Shown: one piece after another, positions 8,001-20,811 of the stretch | Numbering within the stretch: position 1 is the stretch's first letter | How the letters are laid out: each line of letters opens with the position of its first letter | Assembly: GCA_024402435.1 (NCBI GenBank) | Contig: JAKSTU010000007.1 | Span: 2,819-66,818 of the forward strand | DNA length: 64,000 nucleotides | Direction of reading: 5' to 3' | DNA from: Treponemataceae bacterium | GTDB lineage: Bacteria > Spirochaetota > Spirochaetia > Treponematales > Treponemataceae | Position numbers and translations under genes: made by a program | Notes under the pieces: model-generated | Databases searched by the model: none | What the model was told of the DNA's origin: nothing | The model's input: only the letters and a program-made list of their open reading frames with translations

Positions 8001-9155
8001 TTATTTGTTTACTTTCAGTTTACTTTGAAGGTCAAATGGCAGGTTGAAAGTAAATTTGTTGTGTTCTTCGGATTTTGGTTCATCTTTTTTGACAGGAATT
8101 CCAATGGGCAGAGTAACGATGAATTTGCTTCCTTCTCCGATTTTGCTTTCAACAAAAATCTGACCATGAAAAAGTTCCACGATTCTGTGTGCAATGGAAA
8201 GCCCCAATCCCAAACCTTGTCTTGAATGGCTTGAATCTCCCTGAAAATAGGGTCTGAAAAGATTTGTAAGGGTTGTGTCGGACATTCCTTCGCCTGTGTC
8301 CTTGACGGTAACAGTTACGTTCCGCTTTTCCTGAACAAGCGTAACAGTGATTTCTCCGCCTTCTGGCGTGTATTTGCTTGCGTTTCCGATCAGGTTGAGC
8401 CAAAGATGCTGGAGCAGTTCTTTGTTCGCTTTTATCATGACTTCCGCGAGATCAGCTGAAAGCGTCTGATTTTTTGCGGACCATTGTGCGGAACAGATTA
8501 TCGAACATTGTCTTAGCTGTTCTCCAAGATTGTATTCTTCCACTTCTGAAACAATCTGCTGTGACGAAAGCTTGGAAAGCAGAATCGTGTTCTTTGCAAG
8601 TGCAGAAAGCCTGTTTGATTCATCCCGGATTATTTCAAGAAACTGAGTCTGTTCTTCTTTTGAAAGATCCTTTTCAAGGAGAAGACTTGCAAAACCGCTT
8701 ATGGAAGCAATGGGAGTCTTGAATTCATGGGAATAATTGTTGATAAAGTCGTTCTGAAGAATCTGTGTGCTTGCAAGTTCTGCACACATTTTGTTGAAGT
8801 CTTCATAAACTGGAGTAATCGGTTCTTTTCTGCTGGTGTCAATTCTGTATTCGTAATGTCCGCAGGCAACTTTTCCTATTGCATCTGACAGAGTTTCTAT
8901 TTCCCGTGCGCGCTTCTGGTAAGAAAACGTATTCAGCGGCACAAGAATAATTATCATCAGAATAACGGTTCCGAGAATTTCATACAGTGTCTGGTAAACT
9001 GTGTCTTCAACTTTGCCGACTCCCACAGTAATCCACGTCATGAAAGAGTAGGAGCCGATCAGGGTTATAATGATTATTATGCACTGCAGCATTATGTGGG
9101 GAAGAATGCGTTTCAAAAAAAGTGCCACGTTGGGCGGTCTGATTTTCATCTTCAT
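8001..9155 (-). CDS. sensor histidine kinase (two TM segments, HisKA + HATPase_c)
   Basis: H-box SHEFKTPIASISGF, N-box LIGNASKYTP and G-boxes DTGEGM / GLGLGLSIA. Two hydrophobic N-terminal segments. Confidence 0.9.
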   Translation of the reverse strand: MKMKIRPPNVALFLKRILPHIMLQCIIIIITLIGSYSFMTWITVGVGKVEDTVYQTLYEILGTVILMIIILVPLNTFSYQKRAREIETLSDAIGKVACGHYEYRIDTSRKEPITPVYEDFNKMCAELASTQILQNDFINNYSHEFKTPIASISGFASLLLEKDLSKEEQTQFLEIIRDESNRLSALAKNTILLSKLSSQQIVSEVEEYNLGEQLRQCSIICSAQWSAKNQTLSADLAEVMIKANKELLQHLWLNLIGNASKYTPEGGEITVTLVQEKRNVTVTVKDTGEGMSDTTLTNLFRPYFQGDSSHSRQGLGLGLSIAHRIVELFHGQIFVESKIGEGSKFIVTLPIGIPVKKDEPKSEEHNKFTFNLPFDLQSKLKVNK

Positions 9156-9198
9156 AAGTCAATCCTTTGTTCAGTTCAGAAAAAATCGGATTTTGTTT

Positions 9199-9879
9199 TC
9201 AGGAATCTTTTTTCGTGATTTCCGCTTTGTATCCCAAGCCTTTGATTGTAACAATCGTAAAGTCCGTCATGTTCTGCATTTTGTTGCGGATTCTGTTGAT
9301 GTGAGTTTTGACCGTATCATCACCTGTTTCGGACAAAGGGCCCCAAACGCTGTCCCGAATCTGTTCCTTCGAAAAAATCTGGGAAGGATAGGAAAGCAGT
9401 TTGAAAAGCAGATCGAACTCTTTTTTGGGAAGCTCGATGAATTCAGAATCGTTGTAGACAGCATATTTTTCCGAATCGATGGTGGTTCTTCCGATGACGA
9501 TTTTTTTGTTTTCGGTAATGTTTGCACGGCGGAGAAGTGCTGCAACCCTCCATTGCAGTTCATCGCTGCTGAAAGGCTTTGTTATGTATTCATCGGTGCC
9601 CAGTTCGTAACCTTTTTCCATGGCACTGGAAGTTTCCATGGCGGTAAGCATAAGAAAAGGCGTTGTGTATCCTTCCTGACGGATGGTTTTAAGCAGTTCG
9701 TAACCGTCCATTCTGGGCATCATGATATCAGAAATAATCAGATCCACCACGTTTTTGCGGATTATTTCCAGTGCCTCAACACCGTCGCAGGCGCAGAGCA
9801 CGTTGTATTTGTCCGAAAGTCTGGCGGAAGTAAGCAGCCTCATGTTTCTGTCATCTTCTGCAATAAGAATGCAAGCCAT
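9199..9879 (-). CDS. OmpR-family response regulator (REC + winged-helix DNA binding)
   Basis: ILIAEDD...DLIISDIMMP receiver motifs. C-terminal trans_reg_C pattern (LPKKEFDLLFKLL..., VKTHINRIRNKM...IVTIKGLGYK). Confidence 0.92.
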   Translation of the reverse strand: MACILIAEDDRNMRLLTSARLSDKYNVLCACDGVEALEIIRKNVVDLIISDIMMPRMDGYELLKTIRQEGYTTPFLMLTAMETSSAMEKGYELGTDEYITKPFSSDELQWRVAALLRRANITENKKIVIGRTTIDSEKYAVYNDSEFIELPKKEFDLLFKLLSYPSQIFSKEQIRDSVWGPLSETGDDTVKTHINRIRNKMQNMTDFTIVTIKGLGYKAEITKKDS

Positions 9880-9918: not shown

Positions 9919-10752
9919 TCAGTGCTGAAGCAGTTCTTTGAACATGCGGAGACTGGTGGGCAGGTCTTTCATTCCTTCAAAAACCAGCAGTGCGTCAGGA
10001 ACACGTTCTGCAATTTTGGGCAGCATTTTGTCCCAACCCATGATGCCGTCTTTCATGCCTACTTCAACAAGAGTTCCGTCTGAAGCCACATTGAAATCCT
10101 TGATGTGGAAAACAGCGATTTTGTCCCCGAAACGGTCAAGGCATTCGTCCAGAAGGTCAAAGCGGGATTCGTAATTCTTTTCGTAAAGATAGTTGAAAAT
10201 GTCTACAGTTACGCGGATATTGCCGTTGTCCAGTGCTTTGACCATCCGCTCCATCTGTGCCGGACAGTACATGCAGTGTCCCCAAGCGCCTTCAAGCGTA
10301 AGATATGTGCCTGCTTCTTTTGCCACGTCTGCAAGAGGACGGAAAACTGAATAAACATCCTCAAAACCTTCTTCAGTCTGGTTACGGGGATTGTATGTCC
10401 ATGGCTCGTCATTGTAACTTCCAGTTTCGCTTGCAACGAATTTTGCACCGAAAAGGGGAGCTTTCCGAAGATGGTCTGCAAACTTTGCGGCTCCGGCACG
10501 AACTTTGTCTTTGTTTGAATGAACAGGATTGAAGTAGGCTCCCAAAAGGGGAACTTCTACACCATGGGCGTTGAACCCTGCACGGATTTCTTTGCAGACT
10601 TCTTCTGTCATTGTGTCAGGTTCGCCGTCCTGACCGGCAATGGCTTTTGCAACGGCAAGCTGAACGCCGTCAAATCCCAGGTCATGGATTTTCCTGCCCA
10701 AATCATCTGCTGTAGAAAGTCCCACGTCATGGGGACGGATACAAAGTTTCAA
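9919..10752 (-). CDS. sugar phosphate isomerase/epimerase (xylose isomerase-like TIM barrel)
   Basis: Family pattern (GFDGVQL..., LTLEGAWGHC..., VFHIKD). The ORF-track start 10764 contains the GGAGG itself. A TTG at 10752, 5 nt after GGAGG, is the more likely start, but this is uncertain. Confidence 0.75.
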   Translation of the reverse strand: MKLCIRPHDVGLSTADDLGRKIHDLGFDGVQLAVAKAIAGQDGEPDTMTEEVCKEIRAGFNAHGVEVPLLGAYFNPVHSNKDKVRAGAAKFADHLRKAPLFGAKFVASETGSYNDEPWTYNPRNQTEEGFEDVYSVFRPLADVAKEAGTYLTLEGAWGHCMYCPAQMERMVKALDNGNIRVTVDIFNYLYEKNYESRFDLLDECLDRFGDKIAVFHIKDFNVASDGTLVEVGMKDGIMGWDKMLPKIAERVPDALLVFEGMKDLPTSLRMFKELLQH

Positions 10753-10773
10753 AATAACCTCCAAGTGTCATAA

Positions 10774-11205
10774 TCAGTTGAAATTGTTGTTTATGCGTAC
10801 AAGCAGATCGTAAGCGGTCTGCAGCTCTTCCCGGGAAAGCCCGTTGCAGCAGCGCTGGTTCAGCAGTGCGGAAATGTTCGCCGTTGCAGCCGTGTACTCG
10901 CGCCCCTTGTCCGAAAGTTCGATGAACGTTACCCGGTTGTCCGTATCACTTGGAACCCGGCGCACATAGCCTTCCTGTTCCAGCTTTTTTACCAGTACAG
11001 TTGCAGTGGATTTGTCCCGGTTTATCTGGCGCGCAAGTTCTCCCATGGAAAGCCTGTCGCATTTTGAAAGCCGGAAAAGAATATTCCCGTGGGAAGAAAC
11101 CAGTTCCGGAAGCCCCTGTTTTTTGAGTTCTTCCCTCAAAAACGAAGAAGTTCCGGCGTGAATCTGAGAAATCAGCGAAGTAATGTTGGAAACGTCATCT
11201 TTCAC
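10774..11205 (-). CDS. MarR family transcriptional regulator
   Basis: Winged-HTH pattern MGELARQINRDKSTATVLVKKLEQEGYVRRVPSDTDNRV. GTG start with a weak RBS, so the start is uncertain. Confidence 0.85.
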   Translation of the reverse strand: MKDDVSNITSLISQIHAGTSSFLREELKKQGLPELVSSHGNILFRLSKCDRLSMGELARQINRDKSTATVLVKKLEQEGYVRRVPSDTDNRVTFIELSDKGREYTAATANISALLNQRCCNGLSREELQTAYDLLVRINNNFN

Positions 11206-11259: not shown

Positions 11260-12678
11260 TCAGAACTTCCATTGCAGGGACATGTCTCCGCTAAAAACTG
11301 ATTTGGCCGACAAAGCGGCTTTTGCTTTTATCTGCAATCCGTTGTGAGTTACGGAAACCTGGGCGGACAAACCTGCAAAATCCGCTTTTGTTCCTGAGTC
11401 CGCAATTGAAAGACTCAGGATGAATTTGTCACAGTTTTTGAAGGACAGTGAAAAATCCGTGCTGACAACGGGAAAAGTTTTTCCGCTGCTGCCGATTTTT
11501 CCGCCCCCGAAGTCGCAGCCTGCATTCAAAGTAACAGTTCCTTTGTTCCAGACTGCAGAAGTTTCAGCCTTTGTTTTTCCCGCCCATCCGCTCAGTTTCC
11601 ATGTTTCGGAAAAACTTGCTTTCAAATAAAAGGGCAGGTCATGAAGGTTCTGCAAATTCTGGGAAGAAATGTCAGAAATTTTTCCGGACAAAGACAGGTT
11701 CCGCTCTTTCTGTACGAGTTCTGCACTCACTTGGGCTGAATAAAGCCATAAGTTTGGGGCGGCAATACTGCTTCCGATGCGCAGATCCGTACCGGCAGCA
11801 GCACCGAAGACAAAAACCGTTTCTTCTGTTACCGGTAGTGAAAACTCAGAAGCAATGCCTGCTTTGAAAAGACTGCGCACAAAGGTTCCGCTTGCTTTGC
11901 AGAAATCCCTGTCAGACACAAAAACCATTCCTTGAACCGCCGCAAAGCTGTTCCTGAAAAATCCGCGGCTTGTAAAACAGAATTGGGGAACAAAACCCGG
12001 CCGCCATGAAACATCTCCGCTCTGAAAAATCATCGCCTGCTTTTTGCCGCTTTTCCATTCGCCCTGCAGAGCAATTCCGCCGTTTGTAACCAATCCTTCC
12101 CTGACGCAGAACCGGCTTGTGTACCAGTTGGTGGAAGTTTTGGGCGCCAAAGTTGCCAGTCCAAGAAAACCGCTTCCTTTGTATGACAGAAGCCCGGAAG
12201 TTTTGGCGGCAGAACCGGTTTGCCCTGAAAAACCTGTGCAGATTCCGCAAAGTTCAGGAAGTTTTTCGGCAGATTCCCATTCAGAACAGAATGCCGCTGC
12301 AGAAAGTTCAGTTTTTCCCAAGTTTGTTTTGAATCCGGTTACAGCAGAAAAAGATTTTTCAGTTTCTCCTGGTGCGGGAACAGCGGCTGTAAGTGCGGAC
12401 GAAAATGCGGGCATTGAATCACTTGGAGAAGGCAGCGAAGGTTCCGGGTTTTTTGCACGGGAAAAGCTTCCTCCCAGTGACAAACTTCCTGCAGCTGCGA
12501 AAAAATCCCTGCACTCAAATTTCAAAGCCCAGTTTTTCAGTTCAGGCGTTAAAAAATCAGCAGTAAGGTCAAAAATCAGTTTTGTTCCGGCCTTTTCTGC
12601 GGAAAAATCAGCTCCTGCAATTCCTGAAAGAGATGCAAAAATGCCTGCAGAAAGCAAAATTGTGCGAAAAAAATCCAT
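11260..12678 (-). CDS. secreted beta-rich hypothetical protein, putative outer-membrane protein
   Basis: An internal ATG at 12678 gives the signal peptide MDFFRTILLSAGIFASLSGIAGA. The C-terminus ends ...SLQWKF (terminal Phe). The upstream 44 codons of the track ORF translate a T-tract regulatory region. Confidence 0.65.
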   Translation of the reverse strand: MDFFRTILLSAGIFASLSGIAGADFSAEKAGTKLIFDLTADFLTPELKNWALKFECRDFFAAAGSLSLGGSFSRAKNPEPSLPSPSDSMPAFSSALTAAVPAPGETEKSFSAVTGFKTNLGKTELSAAAFCSEWESAEKLPELCGICTGFSGQTGSAAKTSGLLSYKGSGFLGLATLAPKTSTNWYTSRFCVREGLVTNGGIALQGEWKSGKKQAMIFQSGDVSWRPGFVPQFCFTSRGFFRNSFAAVQGMVFVSDRDFCKASGTFVRSLFKAGIASEFSLPVTEETVFVFGAAAGTDLRIGSSIAAPNLWLYSAQVSAELVQKERNLSLSGKISDISSQNLQNLHDLPFYLKASFSETWKLSGWAGKTKAETSAVWNKGTVTLNAGCDFGGGKIGSSGKTFPVVSTDFSLSFKNCDKFILSLSIADSGTKADFAGLSAQVSVTHNGLQIKAKAALSAKSVFSGDMSLQWKF

Positions 12679-12700
12679 ACATATTTTTTTTATGTGTTTT

Positions 12701-12766
12701 ATCGCAAAAAAATCAAAAAATCGGCTCGAAATTTGAAAAAAATCAAAAAAAATCAGGAAAAATCCC
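12701..12766 (-). promoter_or_regulatory. phased T-tract array (five GATTTTT(T) units on the coding strand) upstream of the 11260-12678 gene
   Basis: The minus strand reads GGGATTTTTCCTGATTTTTTTTGATTTTTTTCAAATTTCGAGCCGATTTTTTGATTTTTTTGCG. The core GA-T8-GA-T7-CAA recurs at 23172-23230. Confidence 0.6.
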
Positions 12767-12826
12767 GAATGTTGCCATTCACATAGTTTTTTATGTAAAA
12801 TCGTTTTCATAAAGTTTGAATATCAG

Positions 12827-12879: not shown

Positions 12880-12903
12880 GTAACACTTTCTGCCCGCCGG
12901 CGT
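12880..12903 (+). promoter_or_regulatory. candidate ECF-type promoter (GTAAC-N16-CGT) upstream of the ECF sigma gene
   Basis: GTAAC at 12880-12884, a 16-nt spacer, then CGT at 12901-12903, about 30 nt before ATG 12934. This matches the generic AAC-N16/17-CGT ECF pattern. Confidence 0.4.
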
Positions 12904-12933
12904 GTTGAATAATTCGACAGGGTACAATAGAAG

Positions 12934-13437
12934 ATGGAAAAAAACGTACAGACACTGACAATGGAAAACTTTTCCGCCGTGTATGAGAAATTCGGGCCTC
13001 TGGTTCTCCGGCGCTGCAGATATCTTCTGCATGACGAAGACAAGGCTCTTGATGCAATGCAGGATGTTTTCCTTCGGGTTCTTGAAGCCCGTACAAAATT
13101 GACCGAAGTTTGTTCAAGTTTCTTCTATACTACAGCCACTCGCGTTTGTCTCAACAAAATCAGATACGATTCAATCAGAGTGGGTCCTTCAATTGATGCC
13201 CTGACGGTAGAAATTGCAGACAATGCAAAAGCTTTTCACGAAGACATTACGGACGCTTCTCTTGTTCTGGATGTAATTTTTGACGGAGAAAAATCTGATA
13301 CCCGTGAAATGGCAGTAATGCATTTTGTTGACGGCTACACTTACGATGAGGTGGCCGAAAAAATGCATTATTCAAAAAGTGGAGTCCGCAAACGGCTTAA
13401 GGCTTTGCAGACTCGCGCACAAAAGGCAGGAAAATGA
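12934..13437 (+). CDS. ECF-type RNA polymerase sigma factor (sigma-70 family, regions 2 and 4 only)
   Basis: 167 aa. Region 2 LVLRRCRYLLHDEDKALDAMQDVFLRV. Region 4 HTH VDGYTYDEVAEKMHYSKSGVRKRLKAL. Confidence 0.9.
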   Translation: MEKNVQTLTMENFSAVYEKFGPLVLRRCRYLLHDEDKALDAMQDVFLRVLEARTKLTEVCSSFFYTTATRVCLNKIRYDSIRVGPSIDALTVEIADNAKAFHEDITDASLVLDVIFDGEKSDTREMAVMHFVDGYTYDEVAEKMHYSKSGVRKRLKALQTRAQKAGK

Positions 13438-14306
13438 TTATGGGACAGAGACAGCGGATTCTGGAAGAAGTTTGTGCCGGAGAAATCGAAAATCCCGGTT
13501 TCTCACAGGAAGAAATTCAGGCTGTAAAAGCTTCTGATGCTGAAATACTGGACAAATACCCGGCAGATGCAATAAAAGCGGCATTGGCTGCAAAACTTGC
13601 GGAATCTGCGTCTGACAGTTCGGAAAAAGTTGTTTCACAGACGAAGCCGCGCATTCTGCACTTTGGTGTGGTACAGCGTGTGCTTGTGGCCGCTGCCGCA
13701 TTTTTGCTGGTTTGCGTGTCGCCGGTTCTGATAAAGAATCGTGGTGGCAGCAGTATTGCAGAAAATGCTTCAACCGCAGCTGTTCAGGAAGATGTTTCCG
13801 GCGTACGCGTAAAGGGCGGTTATTCTGCTGCAACACAGAATGCTCAGAAACTGCTTGGTATTCAGACAAGCAGCGGCCCCCACATGTATATCTATAAAAA
13901 AGACGGTTCCATTGCAACGCGTCTTTCAAACCGGGAAACAGTTTCTGAAGGCGATGTTGTTCAGGTGAGCTACAATGCTGCCGGAGCCAGTTACGGAGCA
14001 ATTCTTTCAATTGACGGAAACGGTTGTGTCACACAGCATTATCCCCAGTCAGGTTCAAAATCCGTACAGCTTGTTCAGGGTGAAGAAATCGCTTTGCCCC
14101 AGGCTTATCAGTTTGATGATGCTCCTGATTTTGAGCGCTTTGTATTCATTACTTCTGATTCTGCATTCACTGTGGACAGAATCTATTCTGCCGTTTCCCG
14201 CGATATTTCAAAAAATCAGCTGATGCTTGCAGATCTTTCTGCATATCTGCCGGCTGGAACCAGTGTTTCAGAACTGGTACTTCTTAAATCTGGAGACAGA
14301 AAATGA
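13434..14306 (+). CDS. single-pass membrane protein, putative anti-sigma factor with an extracytoplasmic DUF4384-like beta domain
   Basis: ATGA overlap with the sigma gene. Central TM helix VLVAAAAFLLVCVSPVLI. C-terminal domain ...GDVVQVSYNAAGASYGAILSIDGNGCVTQHYP...FERFVFITSD. No HxxxCxxC zinc motif. Confidence 0.6.
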   Translation: MIMGQRQRILEEVCAGEIENPGFSQEEIQAVKASDAEILDKYPADAIKAALAAKLAESASDSSEKVVSQTKPRILHFGVVQRVLVAAAAFLLVCVSPVLIKNRGGSSIAENASTAAVQEDVSGVRVKGGYSAATQNAQKLLGIQTSSGPHMYIYKKDGSIATRLSNRETVSEGDVVQVSYNAAGASYGAILSIDGNGCVTQHYPQSGSKSVQLVQGEEIALPQAYQFDDAPDFERFVFITSDSAFTVDRIYSAVSRDISKNQLMLADLSAYLPAGTSVSELVLLKSGDRK

Positions 14307-16738
14307 AAAAGACATTGAATAATATTGTTTCAAAAAAAATTGCTTTTGTCCTGCTGACTGTTGCCGCACTGACGGTGTTTCCTCTGAATGTTTTTGCACA
14401 GTCCGGTGCCGTTGAACGCTACGCTCTCTATATTGCATCCAACGCCGGCGGAGAAGGCCGCGAAACATTGCGCTATGCCGGAAGTGACGCAGAAAAACTT
14501 GCTTCCACAATGATTGAAGTGGGCGGCGTAAAAAAACAGAACAGTTTTGTGCTGATTGATTCCTCAAAAGAAGAAATTGACGGCGCACTTGAAAACATTT
14601 CTTCCATTATAGAGCACAGCAAATCACGGGCACGTCGCACTGAATTCCTTTTTTATTACAGCGGTCACTCTGATGAAAATGCTCTTCTCATGGGTGAAGA
14701 ATCCTACAATTATTCAGAACTGAAGCATGCAATCAGTGCAGTTCCAAGCGATGTTCATGTTGTAATGCTGGATTCCTGCTTTTCAGGAAACTTTATCCGT
14801 GCAAAAGGCGGTACCTTTCAGCCGTCTTTCCTGACAGACGACTCAACTGTTGTTCAGGGACACGCATATCTTTCATCCAGTTCTGAAAGCGAATCCTCTC
14901 AGGAATCTGATTCAATCGGGGCATCCTTCTTTACACATTCCGTAGTAAACGGACTCCGCGGTGCTGCAGATATTTCAGGCGACAATAAAGTTTCTCTCAA
15001 TGAACTTTATTACTATGCTTTCAACGACACTCTTTCCCAGACGGAAACAAGCGCTGTGGGACCTCAGCATCCTTCATACAACATTACATTGGTCGGTTCC
15101 GGTGACCTGATTCTTTCTGACCTGACTCAGGCTGATTCAATGCTGATTTTTCCGCCGGAAGCAAACGGACGTTTCTTTGTGCGTACAATCGAAGGAAAAC
15201 TGGAAGCAGAAATCAACAAAGCTTACGGAAATCAGATGAGTCTGGCACTTCCTTGCGGATATTATTCAGTGACTGTGGTCGGAAACGATTCTACAAGTCA
15301 GACACTGGTGCGCCTGGACAAAGGAACTACCCAAGTTCTTAATCTGGTGAACCTGCGTCAGGTGCCGCTTACTGCAACTACTGCACGCGGTTCTTCTTAT
15401 TCCGATGCAAGTGCTTCAAACAATCAGAATGCAGTGCAGAATGCCAACAATAATCCGGTTCAGACAGTGGAAAATAATCCGAAAATCTCCGTTGAACCGA
15501 ACATCAACGTGAATATTGATATCGGTAGAACTTTTTCTGACGGCACTTCAATTTCTGCCGGAAAGCGCATTGATTACAGAACCGGCGAGACACAGGATGT
15601 GGTCCGTATCAGCGCTGACAATCCTTTCTTCGACGTTGATGTTGAAATGATCAACGAAGCCGATATGATTCAGCTTGGTGAAGAAATGGGCTTTGAAAAT
15701 GTACACTTTACTCCCCTGATTGTTTCTCCTTTCCCCGGGCTCTATTTTCCAGGCGGTGACTCTGCATTCCTTTCTGTAAGCGATTTTATGGCCACTCAGG
15801 AAAACATTCTGGGTATTCAGGCTTCAAGCTGGATGAATACTGTCCGGAACAGACTTGTGGGAATTCAGGTCAGCAGTTTCATGAACATTCTTCAGGGAAC
15901 TGGTGCAGGTGCTCAGGCAACCGGCTTCATGAACATTGCAAAAGGACACTTCGACGGTATTCAGGGTTGCGGTTTCATGAATATTGCAAGCGACACGACA
16001 AAGGTAATGCGCGGTATTCAGGCTTGTGGTTTCATGAACATTGCAAGTGCCGGTATAGCAGGTGCTCAGGTTTCCGGTTTCATGAACATCAGCGGAAACA
16101 ATGCTTCGGGCGCAGGCGGATTCCAGGGAACAGGATTCATGAATATTGCAGGAAACTTTGACGGTGTTCAGCTTGGAACAATCAATATCGGAAAAAATGT
16201 CCGCGGTGCACAGATCGGTATTGTAAACATTGCAAAAAGTGTTTCAGGTCCCACATTGGGTCTTGTAAACATTATTGAAGACGGCATCAAAAACTTCTCC
16301 ATCTTTTGGGACGGTGATGATACCTTCTTCCAGTACCAGGGCGGAACTGAATATTTCTTTACTACTTTCATGGTGGGAAACAAAGACGGTTTCGACAGTG
16401 ACAATGTAGTTTTCGGTGCCGGTTTCGGTTTCCGCTTCGGATGGAATTTGCTCAACTTTGATGTGGAATTCCTCGGAAAAACTTTGGTTGATCCGACAGT
16501 TGTCAACAATAATTATGATTTTGGAGAGCAGATTGTTCCTTCATTGCGTCTGTCTGCAAACTTGTGGGCTGCAAAACACTTCGGTGTTTTCTGTGCTGTG
16601 AATGCAGATTTTGCAAACATGAACTCAACCAACCGCTATAAAGATTACTGGAAGGAAAGCGATAATTGCGTAAAAATTGATTTGGGCAATGATCCTTGGA
16701 AAATGCGCATTTCAACTTCTTTCGGAATCAACTTCTGA
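14303..16738 (+). CDS. secreted caspase-fold (peptidase C14) protein with a PEGA-like domain, about 10 short repeats and a Phe-terminated C-terminal module
   Basis: ATGA overlap with the previous gene. Signal peptide ...TVFPLNVFA/QSG. Catalytic dyad contexts FLFYYSGHSDE (His) and VVMLDSCFSGNF (Cys). LPCGYYSVTV is PEGA-like. Repeats G-x-Q-x-x-GFMNIA. Ends ...SFGINF. Confidence 0.85.
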   Translation: MKKTLNNIVSKKIAFVLLTVAALTVFPLNVFAQSGAVERYALYIASNAGGEGRETLRYAGSDAEKLASTMIEVGGVKKQNSFVLIDSSKEEIDGALENISSIIEHSKSRARRTEFLFYYSGHSDENALLMGEESYNYSELKHAISAVPSDVHVVMLDSCFSGNFIRAKGGTFQPSFLTDDSTVVQGHAYLSSSSESESSQESDSIGASFFTHSVVNGLRGAADISGDNKVSLNELYYYAFNDTLSQTETSAVGPQHPSYNITLVGSGDLILSDLTQADSMLIFPPEANGRFFVRTIEGKLEAEINKAYGNQMSLALPCGYYSVTVVGNDSTSQTLVRLDKGTTQVLNLVNLRQVPLTATTARGSSYSDASASNNQNAVQNANNNPVQTVENNPKISVEPNINVNIDIGRTFSDGTSISAGKRIDYRTGETQDVVRISADNPFFDVDVEMINEADMIQLGEEMGFENVHFTPLIVSPFPGLYFPGGDSAFLSVSDFMATQENILGIQASSWMNTVRNRLVGIQVSSFMNILQGTGAGAQATGFMNIAKGHFDGIQGCGFMNIASDTTKVMRGIQACGFMNIASAGIAGAQVSGFMNISGNNASGAGGFQGTGFMNIAGNFDGVQLGTINIGKNVRGAQIGIVNIAKSVSGPTLGLVNIIEDGIKNFSIFWDGDDTFFQYQGGTEYFFTTFMVGNKDGFDSDNVVFGAGFGFRFGWNLLNFDVEFLGKTLVDPTVVNNNYDFGEQIVPSLRLSANLWAAKHFGVFCAVNADFANMNSTNRYKDYWKESDNCVKIDLGNDPWKMRISTSFGINF

Positions 16739-16742
16739 AAGT

Positions 16743-16770
16743 GAAATCCATGTCTACGGATTTCAGTTTT
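16743..16770 (+). terminator. weak intrinsic terminator candidate after the caspase-fold gene
   Basis: GAAATCC-ATGTCTAC-GGATTTC followed by AGTTTTAT. Confidence 0.4.
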
Positions 16771-16905: not shown

Positions 16906-18822
16906 TTATTCTTCTGCGAAAGATCCTGTGTACAGTTTGTAATACTTGCCTTTCTGAGCAATCAGCTGATCGTGGTTTCCGCGCTCAATGATGCGTCCGT
17001 CTTCAAGAACAAGAATCATGTTTGCATTGCGTACTGTAGAAAGTCTGTGTGCAATTACAAAAACCGTGCGTCCCTGCATAAGGCTGTCCATACCTTTTTC
17101 AATCAGGGCCTCGGTTCGTGTATCAACTGAACTGGTTGCTTCATCCAGAATAAGAACCGGAGGATTTGCTACAGCTGCACGGGCAATGGCCAGAAGCTGC
17201 CGCTGTCCCTGACTCAGGTTGCCGCCGTTTCCTGTAATAACTGTGTCATAACCTTGGTTCAAGTGACGGATAAAATAATCCGCATTGGCAAGTTTTGCTG
17301 CGTTTTCAACTTCCGTCATGGATGCGTCTTCTTTTCCGAAGCGGATGTTTTCCGCAATGGTTCCTGTAAAAAGGTTTGTATCCTGAAGAACAATTCCCAA
17401 AGAGCGGCGCAAATCATCTTTTTTGATTTTGTTGATGTTTATGCCGTCAAAACGGATTTTGCTTCCGCCTTCTTCATCAGTCGAAGCATCGTAAAAACGG
17501 TTGATAAGGTTTGTAATCGTTGTTTTTCCGCTTCCTGTGGAACCTACCAGAGCAATCTTCTGACCGGGTTCTGCCGTCATTGTAATTTCATGAAGGACAG
17601 TTTTTTCAGGAACGTAACCGAATGTAACGTTGGAGAACTCCACATGGCCTTTAAGCTGGGTATAAGTTACGGTGCCGTCATGATGAGGGTGTTTCCATGC
17701 CCATTCACCTGTTGGAAGGAAAGCCTCTGCAATGCGGCCGTCTTTAAGAATGTTTGCATTGACCAGTGTAACATAACCTTCGTCAACTTCCGGTTTTTCG
17801 TCAATTACATTGAATACACGTTCAGCACCGGCCAAAGCGTTCAGCACGCTGTTGAAAAGCTGGGCAATCTGCGTAATCGGGTTCCTGAAAGTGCGCGAAT
17901 ATTCCAGGAAAGAAGCAATGCCACCGATTGTCATTCTGCCGGCAATAATCAGCATTACACCTGCCACCGCCGTGATTGCATAACTGATGTGTCCCATGTT
18001 GTTCATAAGGGGGCCCATAATGTTTGCAAGCGTGTTTGCTCTTGTACCCGATTCCTGAAGTCTGTCGTTCAGTTCACCGAATTCTTTGATGGCGTTGTTT
18101 TCATGGCAGAAAACCTTTACAACTTTCTGTCCTTCCATCATTTCTTCAATGAATCCGTTTACTTTTCCGATATTTTCCTGCTGTGCCCTGAAAGCTTTTG
18201 CAGAATGTTTACCTACAACAGCTGTCACCATAACCATTCCGACTGTGCAGACCAGTACCAGCAGCGTAAGTGCCGGACTCAGGCGCAGCATCATTACGAT
18301 ACAGGCCACAATTGTAAGCAGTGAAGAGAAAAGCTGCGGAACAACCTGACTCAGCATGTCGCGGATTGTGTCCGTATCGTTGGTAAAACGGCTCATCAGT
18401 TCACCATGGGTGTGAGTGTCAAAATAGCGGAGCGGAAGCTTCTCCAGGTGATTGAACAGATCTGTGCGGATCCGGTACAGAGTTTTTGACGAAATGTGCA
18501 GCATTATGCGGATGAATGCCCAGTTTGCAATGGCTCCCACTGCAAAAATGCAGAGCATTGTAATCAGCATGCTGATGAATCCTGACAGATCAGGGTTTTC
18601 CTGACCGATGAAAGGAATAATGTAATTGTTCAGAATGGGCTGCAGAAAGTATGAACTTGCAATGCTTGCCCCTGATGAAAGAATGATACAGAAACAGACA
18701 AAAGCAAGCAGAATCTTGTATTGTGCAAGATAACCCAAAAGTCTTCTGATAGTTTTTCCTGCATTTTTGGGTTTCTGCATCGGGCCGCCCCGGCCTCTTC
18801 CTCGTGGTCCTGGTCCTGGCAT
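16906..18822 (-). CDS. ABC transporter ATP-binding/permease protein (type-1 exporter half-transporter, subunit 2)
   Basis: Six-TM N-terminal domain, Walker A GSTGSGKTT, signature LSQGQRQLLAIARA and Walker B ILILDEATS. The start overlaps the upstream stop (TGATG). Confidence 0.93.
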   Translation of the reverse strand: MPGPGPRGRGRGGPMQKPKNAGKTIRRLLGYLAQYKILLAFVCFCIILSSGASIASSYFLQPILNNYIIPFIGQENPDLSGFISMLITMLCIFAVGAIANWAFIRIMLHISSKTLYRIRTDLFNHLEKLPLRYFDTHTHGELMSRFTNDTDTIRDMLSQVVPQLFSSLLTIVACIVMMLRLSPALTLLVLVCTVGMVMVTAVVGKHSAKAFRAQQENIGKVNGFIEEMMEGQKVVKVFCHENNAIKEFGELNDRLQESGTRANTLANIMGPLMNNMGHISYAITAVAGVMLIIAGRMTIGGIASFLEYSRTFRNPITQIAQLFNSVLNALAGAERVFNVIDEKPEVDEGYVTLVNANILKDGRIAEAFLPTGEWAWKHPHHDGTVTYTQLKGHVEFSNVTFGYVPEKTVLHEITMTAEPGQKIALVGSTGSGKTTITNLINRFYDASTDEEGGSKIRFDGININKIKKDDLRRSLGIVLQDTNLFTGTIAENIRFGKEDASMTEVENAAKLANADYFIRHLNQGYDTVITGNGGNLSQGQRQLLAIARAAVANPPVLILDEATSSVDTRTEALIEKGMDSLMQGRTVFVIAHRLSTVRNANMILVLEDGRIIERGNHDQLIAQKGKYYKLYTGSFAEE

Positions 18823-20612
18823 CAGCGGGCCTCCTTTGTCTGATTTTCTGCTTCGGCAGAATCTCCTGCGCCGTCAAAGTCACTGCCTTTCTGCTGTGAC
18901 TCATAAACTTCGCGATAGACTGCATTGTTCTCAAGCAGCTGTTCGTGTGTTCCGCAGCCTGAAATCTGTCCTTCTTCCAGAACAAAAATCTTGTCCGCGT
19001 CTTTTACTGATGTAATGCGCTGTGCAATGATGATTTTGGTCGTGAGAGGCAATGTGTTCCTGAGCCCCTCGCGGATTGACGCGTCTGTAGCCGTATCAAC
19101 TGCGGAAGTGCTGTCGTCCAGAATCAGAATTTTCGGCTTTTTGAGCAAAGCGCGTGCAATACAAAGACGCTGCTTCTGACCGCCTGAAAGGTTTACGCCG
19201 CCCTGACCAAGTTCCGTATCGTAACCGTTTGGAAGTGTTTCAACAAAACCGTGTGCGCAGGCGGTGCGGCATGCTTCTTCAATCTGGGCATCCGTAGCTT
19301 CGGGATTTCCCCAGCGGAGATTGTCACGTATTGTTCCTGAGAAAAGAACGTTTTTCTGCAGAACCATTGCAACATCATTGCGGAGTGCTTCGGGAGAATA
19401 GGTTTTTACGTCTTCGCCGCCAACTTTTACTGTTCCTGAAAGTGTATCGTAAAGGCGCGGAATAAGAGATACGAGCGTGGTTTTGCTTGAACCGGTGCTT
19501 CCCACGATTCCGACTGTTTCCCCGCTGTTTATATGCAGTGAAATGTTTCTTAGAACTGCAGTTTCTTCCTGTTTGTTGTAACTGAAAGAAACGTTTTCAA
19601 AATCGATTGAACCGTCTTTCGGACCTGCAGAAGAAGGATTTTCCGGTGCCTTGATGTCAATTTCTTCGTCCAGTACTTCAACAATACGGCCGATGCTTGC
19701 TCTTGAAAGAACGAACATTACGAACATCATGCTGAACATCATCAGCGACATGAGAATCTGTGTGCCGTAAGTTATGAAGCTTATCAGCTCACCTGTCTTC
19801 ATTGAGCCGATGATGATCTGGTTTCCGCCGAACCACAGGAGCGCAATCAGCGAAAGATACATTACCATTGTCATGACAGGGAAGTTGATGATTACAAGAC
19901 GTTCTGCCTTTACCTGCGCATCACGGACTGCATCGGCAGCACGTTCAAACTTTGCGCGTTCATTGTCTTCGCGGACAAAAGCTTTTACGGCGCGAATCCC
20001 GGTAAGGTTTTCCTGAACTTTTGAGTTCAGGTTGTCGTAGTTTTTCATCATTGTCTGAAAGCGGGGAAACGCCTTTGTCATGATGAGCGCTGCCGGAATT
20101 GCCAGAAGCGGAATCGCCACCAGATAAATCAGGGCAACTTTCGCATTGATGTGAAAACTCATTGCAATGGCACTGATGAACATGAAGGGGGAACGGACGC
20201 ACATGCGGATTACAGCGGAATATGTGTTCTGAGTGTTGGTAACGTCAGAAGTCAGGCGTGTAACCAAAGAAGCGGTACTGAATTTGTCAACATTGGCAAA
20301 AGAGAATTGCTGAACCTTTGCAAAAAGTTTTCTTCGAAGATTGTGTGAAAAACCTTGGGATGCAACTGAAGCAAAACGACCTGCAAGGACACCTGCAGTA
20401 AGTGACAGAAGAGCCGCGCCCACCATCAGGAGCCCGACTTTGATTACGTAACCGGCATCACTGTTTGCAATGCCTACATCGATGATTTTTGCCATGACAA
20501 GGGGAATGAGCACTTCAAGTACAACCTCGCCCATGACAGAAACAGGAGCAAGAAAGGTGCTGATTATGTAGCGCTTTTCAAGTCCTTCCGTGAGTTTTTT
20601 TAGTGTGGACAT
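18822..20612 (-). CDS. ABC transporter ATP-binding/permease protein (type-1 exporter half-transporter, subunit 1)
   Basis: Start taken at MSTLKKLTEGLEKRY (ATG 20612), the family-typical N-terminus. Walker A GSTGSSKTT, signature LSGGQKQRLCIARA and Walker B ILILDDSTS. Confidence 0.9.
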   Translation of the reverse strand: MSTLKKLTEGLEKRYIISTFLAPVSVMGEVVLEVLIPLVMAKIIDVGIANSDAGYVIKVGLLMVGAALLSLTAGVLAGRFASVASQGFSHNLRRKLFAKVQQFSFANVDKFSTASLVTRLTSDVTNTQNTYSAVIRMCVRSPFMFISAIAMSFHINAKVALIYLVAIPLLAIPAALIMTKAFPRFQTMMKNYDNLNSKVQENLTGIRAVKAFVREDNERAKFERAADAVRDAQVKAERLVIINFPVMTMVMYLSLIALLWFGGNQIIIGSMKTGELISFITYGTQILMSLMMFSMMFVMFVLSRASIGRIVEVLDEEIDIKAPENPSSAGPKDGSIDFENVSFSYNKQEETAVLRNISLHINSGETVGIVGSTGSSKTTLVSLIPRLYDTLSGTVKVGGEDVKTYSPEALRNDVAMVLQKNVLFSGTIRDNLRWGNPEATDAQIEEACRTACAHGFVETLPNGYDTELGQGGVNLSGGQKQRLCIARALLKKPKILILDDSTSAVDTATDASIREGLRNTLPLTTKIIIAQRITSVKDADKIFVLEEGQISGCGTHEQLLENNAVYREVYESQQKGSDFDGAGDSAEAENQTKEAR

Positions 20613-20811
20613 GCTTATAATATGGAAAGAAAAATGCAGAAATTCAAGAAAAAAAAGACCTGAATTTGCCGAATTCGGATTTGTGTTGTAAATTATCAGG
20701 GCATCTTTCGCAATCCCGATGCACACAGTCCGCAGACCACCGACAAAGCGGTGTCTCTATGCAGCGGATGTCTGATGAATTCGGGATATTTTGCATTTCC
20801 GGGGAATTTTG

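Follow-up and report, generated by a model that had tools for sequence, protein, structure and literature searches.

Single-pass anti-sigma factors are canonically inactivated by regulated intramembrane proteolysis (RIP), as in the RseA-DegS-RseP, RsiW-PrsW, RsiV and RsiP-signal peptidase systems. Two described systems give a caspase-like enzyme a role in the control of a sigma factor of the extracytoplasmic function (ECF) type. DdvA is a transmembrane anti-sigma factor bearing, in the periplasm, a TPR-CHAT domain that faces the juxtamembrane linker of DdvA itself and has been put forward as its site-1 protease, acting before RseP (PMC11506125). In type III-E CRISPR systems Csx30 binds the ECF sigma factor RpoE through its N-terminal domain and is cut in its linker by the CHAT protease Csx29; the C-terminal domain of one Csx30 group is a DUF4384 (bioRxiv 10.1101/2022.08.17.504292). 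DUF4384 is counted, too, among the accessory domains of cyanobacterial orthocaspases, to which it is found fused (PMC7475262), and sigma factors of group ECF54 are linked to CHAT-domain neighbours, without an anti-sigma factor (PMC8999054). We describe here a three-gene operon coding for an ECF sigma factor, a candidate anti-sigma factor and a caspase-like protease, found in a 64,000-nucleotide stretch of a Treponemataceae bacterium genome (GenBank assembly GCA_024402435.1, contig JAKSTU010000007.1, positions 2,819 to 66,818 of the forward strand), hereafter the window. The original prediction, made by reading the operon sequence, saw in it a possible envelope signalling or effector module and did not name the precedents DdvA and Csx29/Csx30/RpoE. 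Two observations are new: a strictly spaced promoter motif ahead of the operon and an R-x-K-G motif common to the anti-sigma linker and to a loop of the protease.

The three genes are encoded as follows (window coordinates):

12934-13437, + strand: gene 1, open reading frame (ORF) of 167 amino acids (aa)
13434-14306, + strand: gene 2, ORF of 290 aa, candidate transmembrane anti-sigma factor
14303-16738, + strand: gene 3, ORF of 811 aa, exported multi-domain Peptidase_C14 protein

The reading frames and the two ATGA overlaps between the stop of one gene and the start of the next, at 13434-13437 (genes 1/2) and 14303-14306 (genes 2/3), are those first reported. The three genes form, almost certainly, one conserved functional module. 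A scan of species-representative genomes yielded 80 loci, in all of which ORFs were called and then searched with the window proteins. These loci belong to Treponema and other Spirochaetota (including Treponema porcinum ATCC BAA-908), Leptospirales, Aminicenantes, Myxococcota (including Myxococcus xanthus, Enhygromyxa and Pyxidicoccus), Lujinxingia, Pseudobacteriovorax (Bdellovibrionota being among the groups represented) and unclassified metagenome-assembled genomes (MAGs). In nearly all of the 80, sigma factor, gene 2 and C14 protease follow one another on a single strand, and the genes very often overlap by 4 bp; the closest locus (L006 in our numbering) comes from a Treponemataceae MAG. 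The same arrangement is found in metagenome contigs and, when the search is started in reverse from distant homologues of the protease, in two further loci. The adjacency is not peculiar to one genome, and this synteny across several phyla agrees with the envelope signalling module initially proposed. Homologues are numerous. A first search with gene 2 gave seven relatives, whose profile led to 684 clusters at 90% identity; an exhaustive hidden Markov model (HMM) search gave 2062 clusters at 50% identity (E<=1e-30), nearly all of 255-300 aa. Gene 3 has full-length homologues in at least 733 clusters at 90% identity, annotated just as 'caspase family protein'; among its relatives is a 100% identical protein of a Treponemataceae MAG. 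The triad genes have the GC content of their flanks. No fourth gene generally conserved with the triad was found in the 80 loci; a gene for a TonB-receptor-like protein was considered for this position and rejected, as it adjoins the triad in just 11 of ~80 loci. A full-text literature search found no description of a sigma/anti-sigma/C14 triad, and the main text of the ECF re-classification paper (PMC7826278), whose supplementary tables could hold an entry, mentions neither caspase nor DUF4384. The triad is widespread and, apparently, undescribed.

Gene 1 codes for a predicted ECF (group 4) sigma-70 factor, as had been read from its regions 2 and 4. It matches Sigma70_r2 (4e-10, aa 17-78), Sigma70_r4_2 (7e-6, aa 123-156) and Sigma70_ECF, and scores 55.1 bits against the NCBIfam model TIGR02937 (sigma70-ECF; cut-off 42.9). 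Scores against all NCBIfam subfamily and equivalog models are far under their cut-offs, such as 52.7 vs 126 for Sig70_bacteroi1 and 39.9 vs 185 for FecI.

The gene 2 product is the candidate anti-sigma factor of gene 1. Its AlphaFold model (mean predicted local distance difference test score, pLDDT, of 79) and its sequence delimit four segments of interest:

13446-13622, + strand: gene 2 aa 5-63, three cytoplasmic helices resembling an anti-sigma domain (AlphaFold helices 5-14, 25-41 and 44-63, pLDDT >90)
13668-13736, + strand: gene 2 aa 79-101, single transmembrane helix (AlphaFold helix and hydrophobic stretch)
13806-13817, + strand: gene 2 R125-V126-K127-G128, R-x-K-G motif of the disordered linker on the periplasmic side, where site-1 cleavage may fall between K127 and G128
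13881-14288, + strand: gene 2 aa 150-285, periplasmic β-sandwich, divergent DUF4384-like (pLDDT >90)

The hydrophobic stretch VLVAAAAFLLVCVSPVLI spans aa 83-100 and is followed by a linker, aa 104-129, modelled as disordered (pLDDT <50). Both the single transmembrane helix and the lack of an HxxxCxxC zinc motif, noted from the start, hold in sequence and model; the consensus of a 57-sequence family alignment reads YYLERYxLGELPxEE...RLASxxPE at the N-terminus, with RLASxxPE where the zinc motif would stand. The N-terminal region gives sub-threshold HMM matches to zf-HC2 (E 0.023 and 0.32) and RskA_N (E 0.058), and a few family members carry the JGI name 'anti-sigma-K factor RskA'. The sole Pfam match of gene 2 is to DUF4384 (PF14326; E=5.7e-5, 23.6 bits), under the gathering score of 27; a match at E<=0.01 is found in 19 of the 57 family members, and three relatives have a precomputed PF14326 match. 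Because the score is below gathering and 19 of 57 relatives match, the DUF4384-like label of the original prediction is fair but sub-threshold, and the C-terminal domain is best called a divergent DUF4384-like domain on the strength of these profile comparisons. The fold search with gene 2 returns generic Ig-like sandwiches alone and gives no functional lead for the DUF4384-like domain or for the small helical domain, and the family profile matches no PDB sequence at E<=10. TPR and CHAT domains are absent from gene 2 in the Pfam search and in the AlphaFold model, and no FecR domain was found in the Pfam search.

The gene 3 product is a mosaic of exported, catalytic and membrane-anchoring parts (structure model with mean pLDDT of 74):

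14303-14398, + strand: gene 3 aa 1-32, Sec signal peptide ending ...NVFA before QS, no lipobox (sequence; N-terminal helix 8-24 in the model)
14414-15052, + strand: gene 3 aa 38-250, protease domain of caspase/metacaspase fold (Peptidase_C14 match; Foldseek)
14666-14668, + strand: gene 3 catalytic His122, in YYSGH(122)S
14777-14779, + strand: gene 3 catalytic Cys159, in LDSC(159)FSG
14798-14812, + strand: gene 3 R166-A-K168-G169-G170, R-x-K-G-G motif in a disordered loop, candidate autoprocessing or auto-inhibitory site
15137-15364, + strand: gene 3 aa 279-354, small β-sandwich (predicted strands)
15371-15640, + strand: gene 3 aa 357-446, disordered linker of ~90 aa rich in Ser/Asn/Gln (pLDDT <50, no secondary structure)
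15710-16282, + strand: gene 3 aa 470-660, G-x-Q-x-x-G-F-M-N-I repeats, predicted β-solenoid-like (pLDDT >90, regular short strands)
16283-16735, + strand: gene 3 aa 661-811, predicted outer-membrane β-barrel anchor ending ...SFGINF (long antiparallel strands, pLDDT >90)

The protease domain belongs to peptidase family C14, of the clan CD caspase fold: it scores 32.9 bits against Peptidase_C14 (PF00656; cut-off 21.4, aa 39-245), and Foldseek aligns it, at probability 1.0 and with target-normalised TM-scores of ~0.45-0.6, to caspase-7, -6 and -3, metacaspase and legumain. The intact His/Cys dyad seen at first reading is borne out by the invariance of His122 and Cys159 in 79 of 79 non-redundant orthologues. 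R39, D62, S120, D157, K168, G169, E197, Q200, E201, D223 and E234 are likewise invariant. The single sequence gives only noise against PDB. The family profile gives marginal matches (E ~0.03) to Arabidopsis metacaspase-4 (AtMC4) and metacaspase-9, used just for residue alignment, in which L-R-Y-A-G-S-D-A corresponds to L-R-G-C-V-N-D-V and Y-Y-S-G-H to H-Y-S-G-H86. The catalytic residues of AtMC4 are His86 and Cys139, and its pocket for the P1 lysine is made of Ser84 and Asp137, each two residues before a catalytic residue (PMC7206013); the S1 pocket of TbMCA2 comprises Cys92, Asp95, Ser156 and Asp211 (PMC4357240). The gene 3 equivalents are S120 (S-x-H), D157 (D-x-C) and D62. This metacaspase-like S1 pocket is invariant and we therefore predict that the protease accepts Lys or Arg at P1 and cleaves after one of these residues. 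Invariance of the dyad and of the pocket residues among the 79 orthologues argues for a catalytically active enzyme. Gene 3 scores 59.4 bits against the model of the EACC1-associated caspase (NF047832), far under its cut-off of 140.

Beyond the catalytic domain, aa 470-811 are modelled as all-β with very high confidence. The preceding segment aa 266-480, which holds the small β-sandwich, is conserved in the 80 loci; the sandwich has no detected Pfam family, and PEGA, a domain that had been put forward for a check on the three proteins, is not detected. Gene 3 also scores 28.3 bits against the NCBIfam model LA_2272_repeat (cut-off 25). This surface repeat model was defined on Leptospira lipoproteins, with which the window gene 3 shares the repeat module. 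The barrel has weak Foldseek matches (E 4e-3 to 0.1) to FadL, NspA, the OprF N-terminal barrel, the OmpA transmembrane domain and PcoB. The terminal residue is Phe in 58 of 66 gene 3 homologues, within a W-[ST]-F-G-x-K-F tail; a tail of this kind, ending in Phe, is a typical β-signal. Signal peptides of the homologues are similar, with a lipobox-like motif in just 3 of the 66. The gene 3 product is thus exported, and its C-terminal barrel most likely fixes it in the outer membrane; from the topology of small barrels we infer that its N-terminal parts lie in the periplasm. Of the initial description as a secreted, Sec-exported protein the signal peptide stands, while free secretion gives way to a probable outer-membrane anchor; a protease domain facing, most likely, the periplasm fits poorly with the role of surface effector considered at that time. 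The Pfam search found neither an STN nor a Plug domain in gene 3.

Protease and anti-sigma factor have an R-x-K-G motif in common. Among 76 tabulated protein pairs the consensus is [TIV]-R-x-K-G in gene 2, with Lys in 76 of 76 and Arg at -2 in 66 of 76, and [TI]-R-x-K-G-G in gene 3, nine residues past the catalytic Cys, with Lys in 76 of 76 and Arg in 70 of 76. The window versions read V-R-V-K-G-G in gene 2 and I-R-A-K-G-G in gene 3. K127 and G128 of gene 2 are invariant in the 57-sequence alignment and lie at the end of an otherwise variable linker, the Lys standing a median of 21 residues (range 8-52) past the transmembrane helix. DegS leaves a stub of similar length on RseA. In the 79 orthologues of gene 3, K168 and G169 are invariant and R166 is found in 92%; the loop that carries them (aa 162-199) is highly conserved, yet modelled as disordered (pLDDT <50). 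The Arg co-varies between the two proteins: the six proteases devoid of it (L-x-K-G-V or V-S-K-G) are all paired with an Arg-less anti-sigma factor, compared to 4 of the 70 proteases that contain it (contingency table 66, 4 / 0, 6; Fisher p=1e-6, phylogeny not accounted for). The simplest reading is that R-x-K-G, cut after the Lys, would be the recognition site of the gene 3 protease, present both in its own regulatory loop and in its substrate. The position of the loop corresponds to that where caspases and type II metacaspases are processed. Of the two roles that the original prediction offered for the protease, site-1 protease or surface effector, the first gains indirect support from the common motif and from the S1 pocket, which favours a basic P1. 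Cleavage had been placed there in the DUF4384 domain; the cut predicted from the motif falls ahead of that domain, in the disordered juxtamembrane linker.

A second conserved signal is found in the DNA upstream of the sigma genes. A k-mer enrichment in the 150 nt preceding these genes made GTGACA/GTAACA and GGTGTT stand out. In 59 of 68 loci a match to G[TG]RAC-N17-KTGTY lies 20-65 nt 5' of the aligned start of the sigma gene, and the spacer from hexamer to GTGTT is exactly 16 nt in every case (GTRACA-N16-GTGTT). The window holds one copy:

12880-12906, + strand: predicted ECF-type autoregulatory promoter, with GTAACA (-35) at 12880-12885, a 16-nt spacer and GTGTT (-10) at 12902-12906

Its 3' end lies 28 nt ahead of the sigma ATG and it is the single match to GTRAC-N17-KTGTY in the 64 kb. 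Positions that the search pattern leaves free are also conserved, with A at position 6 in 59 of 60 aligned sites and A at position 30, three bases past GTGTT, in 52 of 60. In the position matrix of these 60 sites the flanks of the motif are asymmetric: RGT is conserved on the left and the mirror positions on the right are not, nor does the A at position 30 have a mirror. GTRACA-N16-GTGTT is predicted, from this conservation, to be the autoregulated promoter of the sigma gene. A promoter is favoured over a palindromic operator because the flanks are asymmetric, and a repressor operator, considered as AACAC and GTGTT are reverse complements, was rejected on the same grounds. No DNA-binding gene besides the sigma factor accompanies the motif. 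The classical ECF promoter AAC-N15-18-CGT is found upstream of the sigma gene in just 15 of 68 loci against a background of 12%, and was dropped. In many loci an NTG start codon lies 8 nt past the -10 GTGTT (G at position 37 in 46 of 60 sites), which suggests that sigma mRNAs are leaderless in many lineages. The Treponemataceae window differs in having a 28-nt leader with an AGG-type ribosome-binding site.

The motif is also found elsewhere in the loci, in 34 extra copies, about 13 of which are expected by chance according to our own estimate. These precede gene 2 in Myxococcus loci without an adjacent sigma gene, and genes for TonB-dependent-receptor-like proteins, ExbB, an HlyD adaptor, a C92 amidase and small outer-membrane-like ORFs. 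Genes preceded by the motif lie at 10677-11195 of locus L019, 3922-4590 of L049, 9750-10820 of L058 and 4098-5195 of L064, and these four loci include two genes for ExbB/TolQ-family proton channels, one for an HlyD-type adaptor and one for a C92 (YiiX-like) amidase, a hint at a regulon concerned with TonB-dependent transport and envelope functions.

We favour the hypothesis, on which we are nonetheless evenly divided, that the triad is a self-regulated envelope signalling cassette whose caspase-like enzyme is the dedicated site-1 protease of the anti-sigma factor. The gene 2 product would span the inner membrane and hold the ECF sigma factor inactive through its three-helix cytoplasmic domain. 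The protease, once exported by the Sec pathway, would be held in the outer membrane by the β-barrel at its C-terminus, the flexible tether of ~90 residues letting the metacaspase-like domain hang in the periplasm. An envelope signal would activate it, probably with involvement of its own R166-x-K168-G loop as a self-processing or auto-inhibitory element. The active enzyme would then cut the anti-sigma factor at R125-x-K127-G128, between Lys and Gly, in the disordered linker ~25 residues outside the membrane, and so remove its DUF4384-like domain. Site-2 and cytoplasmic proteases would destroy the stub and free the sigma factor, which would transcribe its own operon from GTAACA-N16-GTGTT and, in other genomes, apparently also nearby genes for TonB-dependent-receptor-like proteins, ExbB and small outer-membrane proteins. 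We infer that gene 2 binds the sigma factor, that the protease domain faces the periplasm, that the cut falls at K127 and that a site-2 protease takes part.

Several points weigh against this scheme. A site-1 protease encoded in the operon that it induces creates positive feedback, so tight gating by the signal would be required. In Myxococcus species gene 2 and the protease are retained with no sigma gene next to them. The identity of gene 2 as anti-sigma factor rests on its position, its architecture and three predicted helices, the zf-HC2 and RskA_N matches being sub-threshold, and the periplasmic orientation of the protease domain is derived from the topology of a modelled barrel whose matches are weak (E 4e-3 to 0.1). 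The co-variation of the Arg residues amounts to about 2-3 independent lineages, with no correction for phylogeny, and four loci are exceptions to it. Instead of forming the scissile bond, the invariant K-G could have a structural part or serve to bind a different partner. Self-cleavage in cis at K168 is sterically doubtful because this residue is just nine positions from Cys159; it would need to occur in trans.

Comparison to described systems places the triad close to several of them. Like DdvA-DdvS, it would associate an ECF sigma factor held by a single-pass anti-sigma factor, a periplasmic caspase-fold domain with a His/Cys pair and an autoregulated operon; in both, the proposed site-1 protease, ahead of RseP-type cleavage, is the caspase-fold domain, placed opposite a flexible juxtamembrane linker. 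The protease-like domain of DdvA is, however, a CHAT domain with TPR, fused to the anti-sigma factor, whereas that of the triad is C14 metacaspase-like, carried by a separate protein and anchored in the outer membrane. DdvA also has a CHCC zinc anti-sigma domain, which gene 2 lacks, and has no DUF4384-like domain; it controls a CBASS/CRISPR island, whereas no defence genes are linked to the triad. The Craspase system has in common with the proposed scheme a caspase-like protease that cuts the flexible linker of a sigma-binding protein and so parts its N-terminal sigma-binding domain from the C-terminal domain. It differs in being cytoplasmic, RNA-guided and bound to Cas7-11, with a protease of the CHAT type (TPR-CHAT Csx29) and not C14. 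Csx30 is no membrane protein, unlike gene 2, and no cas gene family recurs in the flanks of the triad in the loci surveyed; the gene 2 family profile matches no PDB chain at E<=10, and hence no chain of Csx30 either.

Canonical RIP shares with the proposed scheme a signal-gated, extracytoplasmic, juxtamembrane site-1 cut of a single-pass anti-sigma factor that leaves a short stub for the site-2 protease. The site-1 enzyme of the triad would differ in being a clan CD cysteine protease instead of a serine or metalloprotease, encoded in the same operon and tethered to the outer membrane. Metacaspases and orthocaspases (C14B; AtMC4, TbMCA2) have in common with gene 3 the YSGH and D-S-C-x-S-G motifs and the Ser/Asp residues of the S1 pocket two positions before the catalytic His/Cys. 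Common to gene 3 and AtMC4 is also a Lys-containing loop downstream of the catalytic Cys, self-processed or inhibitory in AtMC4. The similarity is marginal (E ~0.03), the candidate loop of gene 3 is 9 residues past the Cys and not 86, and gene 3 is exported and fused to a β-sandwich, a β-solenoid and an outer-membrane barrel. FecI-FecR-FecA is, as the triad is proposed to be, a trans-envelope trio of ECF sigma factor, inner-membrane anti-sigma factor and outer-membrane barrel with a periplasmic N-terminal part, and genes for TonB-dependent-receptor-like proteins and ExbB are linked to the triad, or bear its motif, in some genomes. Unlike that trio, gene 2 has no FecR domain and gene 3 has neither STN nor Plug; its outer-membrane protein bears a protease with an intact active site and no signalling domain. 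The triad would therefore work like DdvA and Craspase-type systems but is a member of none. A broader proposal, which we hold tentatively and somewhat short of an even balance, is that the free-standing sigma/anti-sigma/caspase module spans phyla and uses an outer-membrane-tethered, periplasmic, metacaspase-like site-1 protease to cut a DUF4384-type anti-sigma factor at R-x-K-G, after the Lys, with the same motif gating the protease itself. The module would also be the evolutionary source, or a sister, of the type III-E Csx30-RpoE module and of the fused DdvA-type anti-sigma factors, and bacterial caspase homologues would have, as an ancestral and general function, the control of ECF sigma factors.

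The alternative that survives best, unlikely in our judgement but to be taken seriously, makes the protease an output of the regulon and not its switch: it would serve envelope remodelling, quality control or nutrient acquisition, and the ECF pair would answer to another signal or another site-1 protease. Co-transcription of the protease with the sigma gene from the sole copy of the motif in the 64-kb window suits an effector as well, and so does the nature of the motif-preceded neighbours in other genomes, which are envelope and uptake genes (TonB-dependent-receptor-like, ExbB, HlyD adaptor, C92 amidase). In several loci the gene right after that of the protease codes for a TonB-receptor-like protein, and the large β-solenoid and barrel exceed the obvious needs of a dedicated site-1 protease. 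A protease that is only an output does not explain, however, why anti-sigma linker and protease loop share an invariant and co-varying R-x-K-G, why the protease subfamily almost never occurs apart from the gene 2 family, or why DUF4384 is fused in cis to caspase domains in other proteins.

A reversed or structural logic is distinctly improbable. The anti-sigma linker and DUF4384-like domain would be a pseudo-substrate or docking partner that tethers and inhibits the protease anchored in the outer membrane, and the resulting bridge across the envelope would report integrity or spacing by dissociating, with no required cut; alternatively, the protease would protect the anti-sigma factor, as RseB protects RseA. 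The disordered tethers of gene 3 (~90 aa) and of gene 2 (~26 aa) could reach across the periplasm. Cell-surface signalling by FecA-FecR has a similar overall topology, and weak FecI-like matches were obtained with the sigma factor, but FecR and STN domains were not found. A Lys-containing loop can be inhibitory, as in AtMC4, where Lys225 occupies the active site and self-inhibits the enzyme until cleavage (PMC7206013). The complete invariance of the His/Cys dyad and of the S1-pocket residues in 79 orthologues nevertheless argues for real catalysis, and a purely protective role needs no active site.

A role of the triad in phage defence or conflict, after the manner of DdvA or Craspase, is very improbable; a periplasmic caspase-like sensor of a phage component would then free the sigma factor for defence genes located elsewhere. 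Both known caspase-like/ECF sigma systems (DdvA-DdvS and Csx29-Csx30-RpoE) are defence-linked, gene 3 has weak similarity to the EACC1-associated caspase model (59 bits) and the module is present in Myxococcota, where DdvA-like systems occur, but PADLOC matches none of the three proteins, in line with the early remark that no described caspase-containing defence architecture fits, no CRISPR/cas, CBASS, gasdermin or nuclease family recurs beside the triad in the loci surveyed, the motif-linked neighbours are envelope and TonB genes, no relatives were found in viral contigs, base composition equals that of the flanks and the EACC1 score is far under the cut-off of 140.

The organisation of the module varies among the loci. 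A gene for a TonB-dependent-receptor-like protein (CarboxypepD_reg and Plug) on the same strand as the triad is found in the 11 of ~80 loci mentioned above, such as at 5173-7488 of L003, 7335-9893 of L019, 6376-8772 of L034, 8790-11186 of L038, 7942-10305 of L083, 24-2495 of L030, 2660-5059 of L063, 1685-3931 of L062, 851-3178 of L066 and 7254-9797 of L086. GTRACA-N16-GTGTT stands ahead of the receptor gene in L062, L063 and L066. In L003, L034, L038 and L083 the protease is short (394-671 aa), without the C-terminal solenoid and barrel, and the receptor gene comes directly after it; a free-standing outer-membrane barrel may stand in for the fused one there. Seven Myxococcus loci (L042, L047, L048, L050, L059, L065 and L069) carry gene 2 and the protease with no adjacent sigma gene, and the ORF upstream of gene 2 looks there like an epimerase/acetyltransferase. 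Pyxidicoccus locus L041 (5093-6414) has a sigma and gene 2 pair with the motif and no protease within 6 kb. The module appears to be split, or duplicated into partial copies, in Myxococcaceae. Some taxonomic labels are at odds with gene content. L042, titled Comamonas sp. KCTC 72670, has an organisation near-identical to that of the Myxococcus loci, and L018, L034, L038, L071 and L083, titled uncultured Eubacteriales/Clostridia, are MAG contigs with an outer-membrane-anchored protease, three of which (L034, L038 and L083) also carry the TonB-receptor-like gene. These six labels are likely wrong or the result of mis-binning.

The operon of the window is bounded downstream by a hairpin, which marks its end:

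16742-16765, + strand: terminator-like hairpin directly 3' of the gene 3 stop codon

The first gene past it, 16906-18822, is convergent with the triad and belongs to a region with two tandem ABC exporter genes (16906-20726, - strand). Immediately upstream of the operon a divergent ORF of 516 aa (11260-12810, - strand) has a hydrophobic N-terminal segment and a C-terminus ...SLQWKF that resembles the tail of outer-membrane proteins; it has no match in Pfam, NCBIfam or PADLOC, is conserved in L006, the closest relative, alone and does not accompany the triad. Further upstream, on the - strand, are genes for a MarR-family regulator (10774-11205) and for a histidine kinase with an OmpR-type response regulator (8001-9879). 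The promoter motif is absent from the histidine kinase/OmpR, MarR and ABC exporter genes, which are not conserved with the triad beyond L006. The 516-aa protein, MarR, the ABC exporters and a hydrolase were considered as parts of the system and rejected, being conserved only in L006.

To our knowledge, bacterial C14 proteases are abundant and almost without defined physiological substrates. The cassette offers a specific candidate pair of enzyme and substrate with a predicted scissile motif, R-x-K-G cut between Lys and Gly, and a predicted output promoter, GTRACA-N16-GTGTT. The conserved promoter motif enables an in-silico regulon search in any genome that bears the module, and the presence of the cassette in the genetically tractable Myxococcus xanthus and in the cultured Treponema porcinum makes the proposal testable. 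If it is true, clan CD cysteine proteases would have to be counted among the enzymes of site-1 cleavage in RIP, as a relay from the outer to the inner membrane, and the defence-linked DdvA and Craspase-Csx30-RpoE systems would be tied to a much larger, housekeeping-looking family of ~2,000 clusters at 50% identity.

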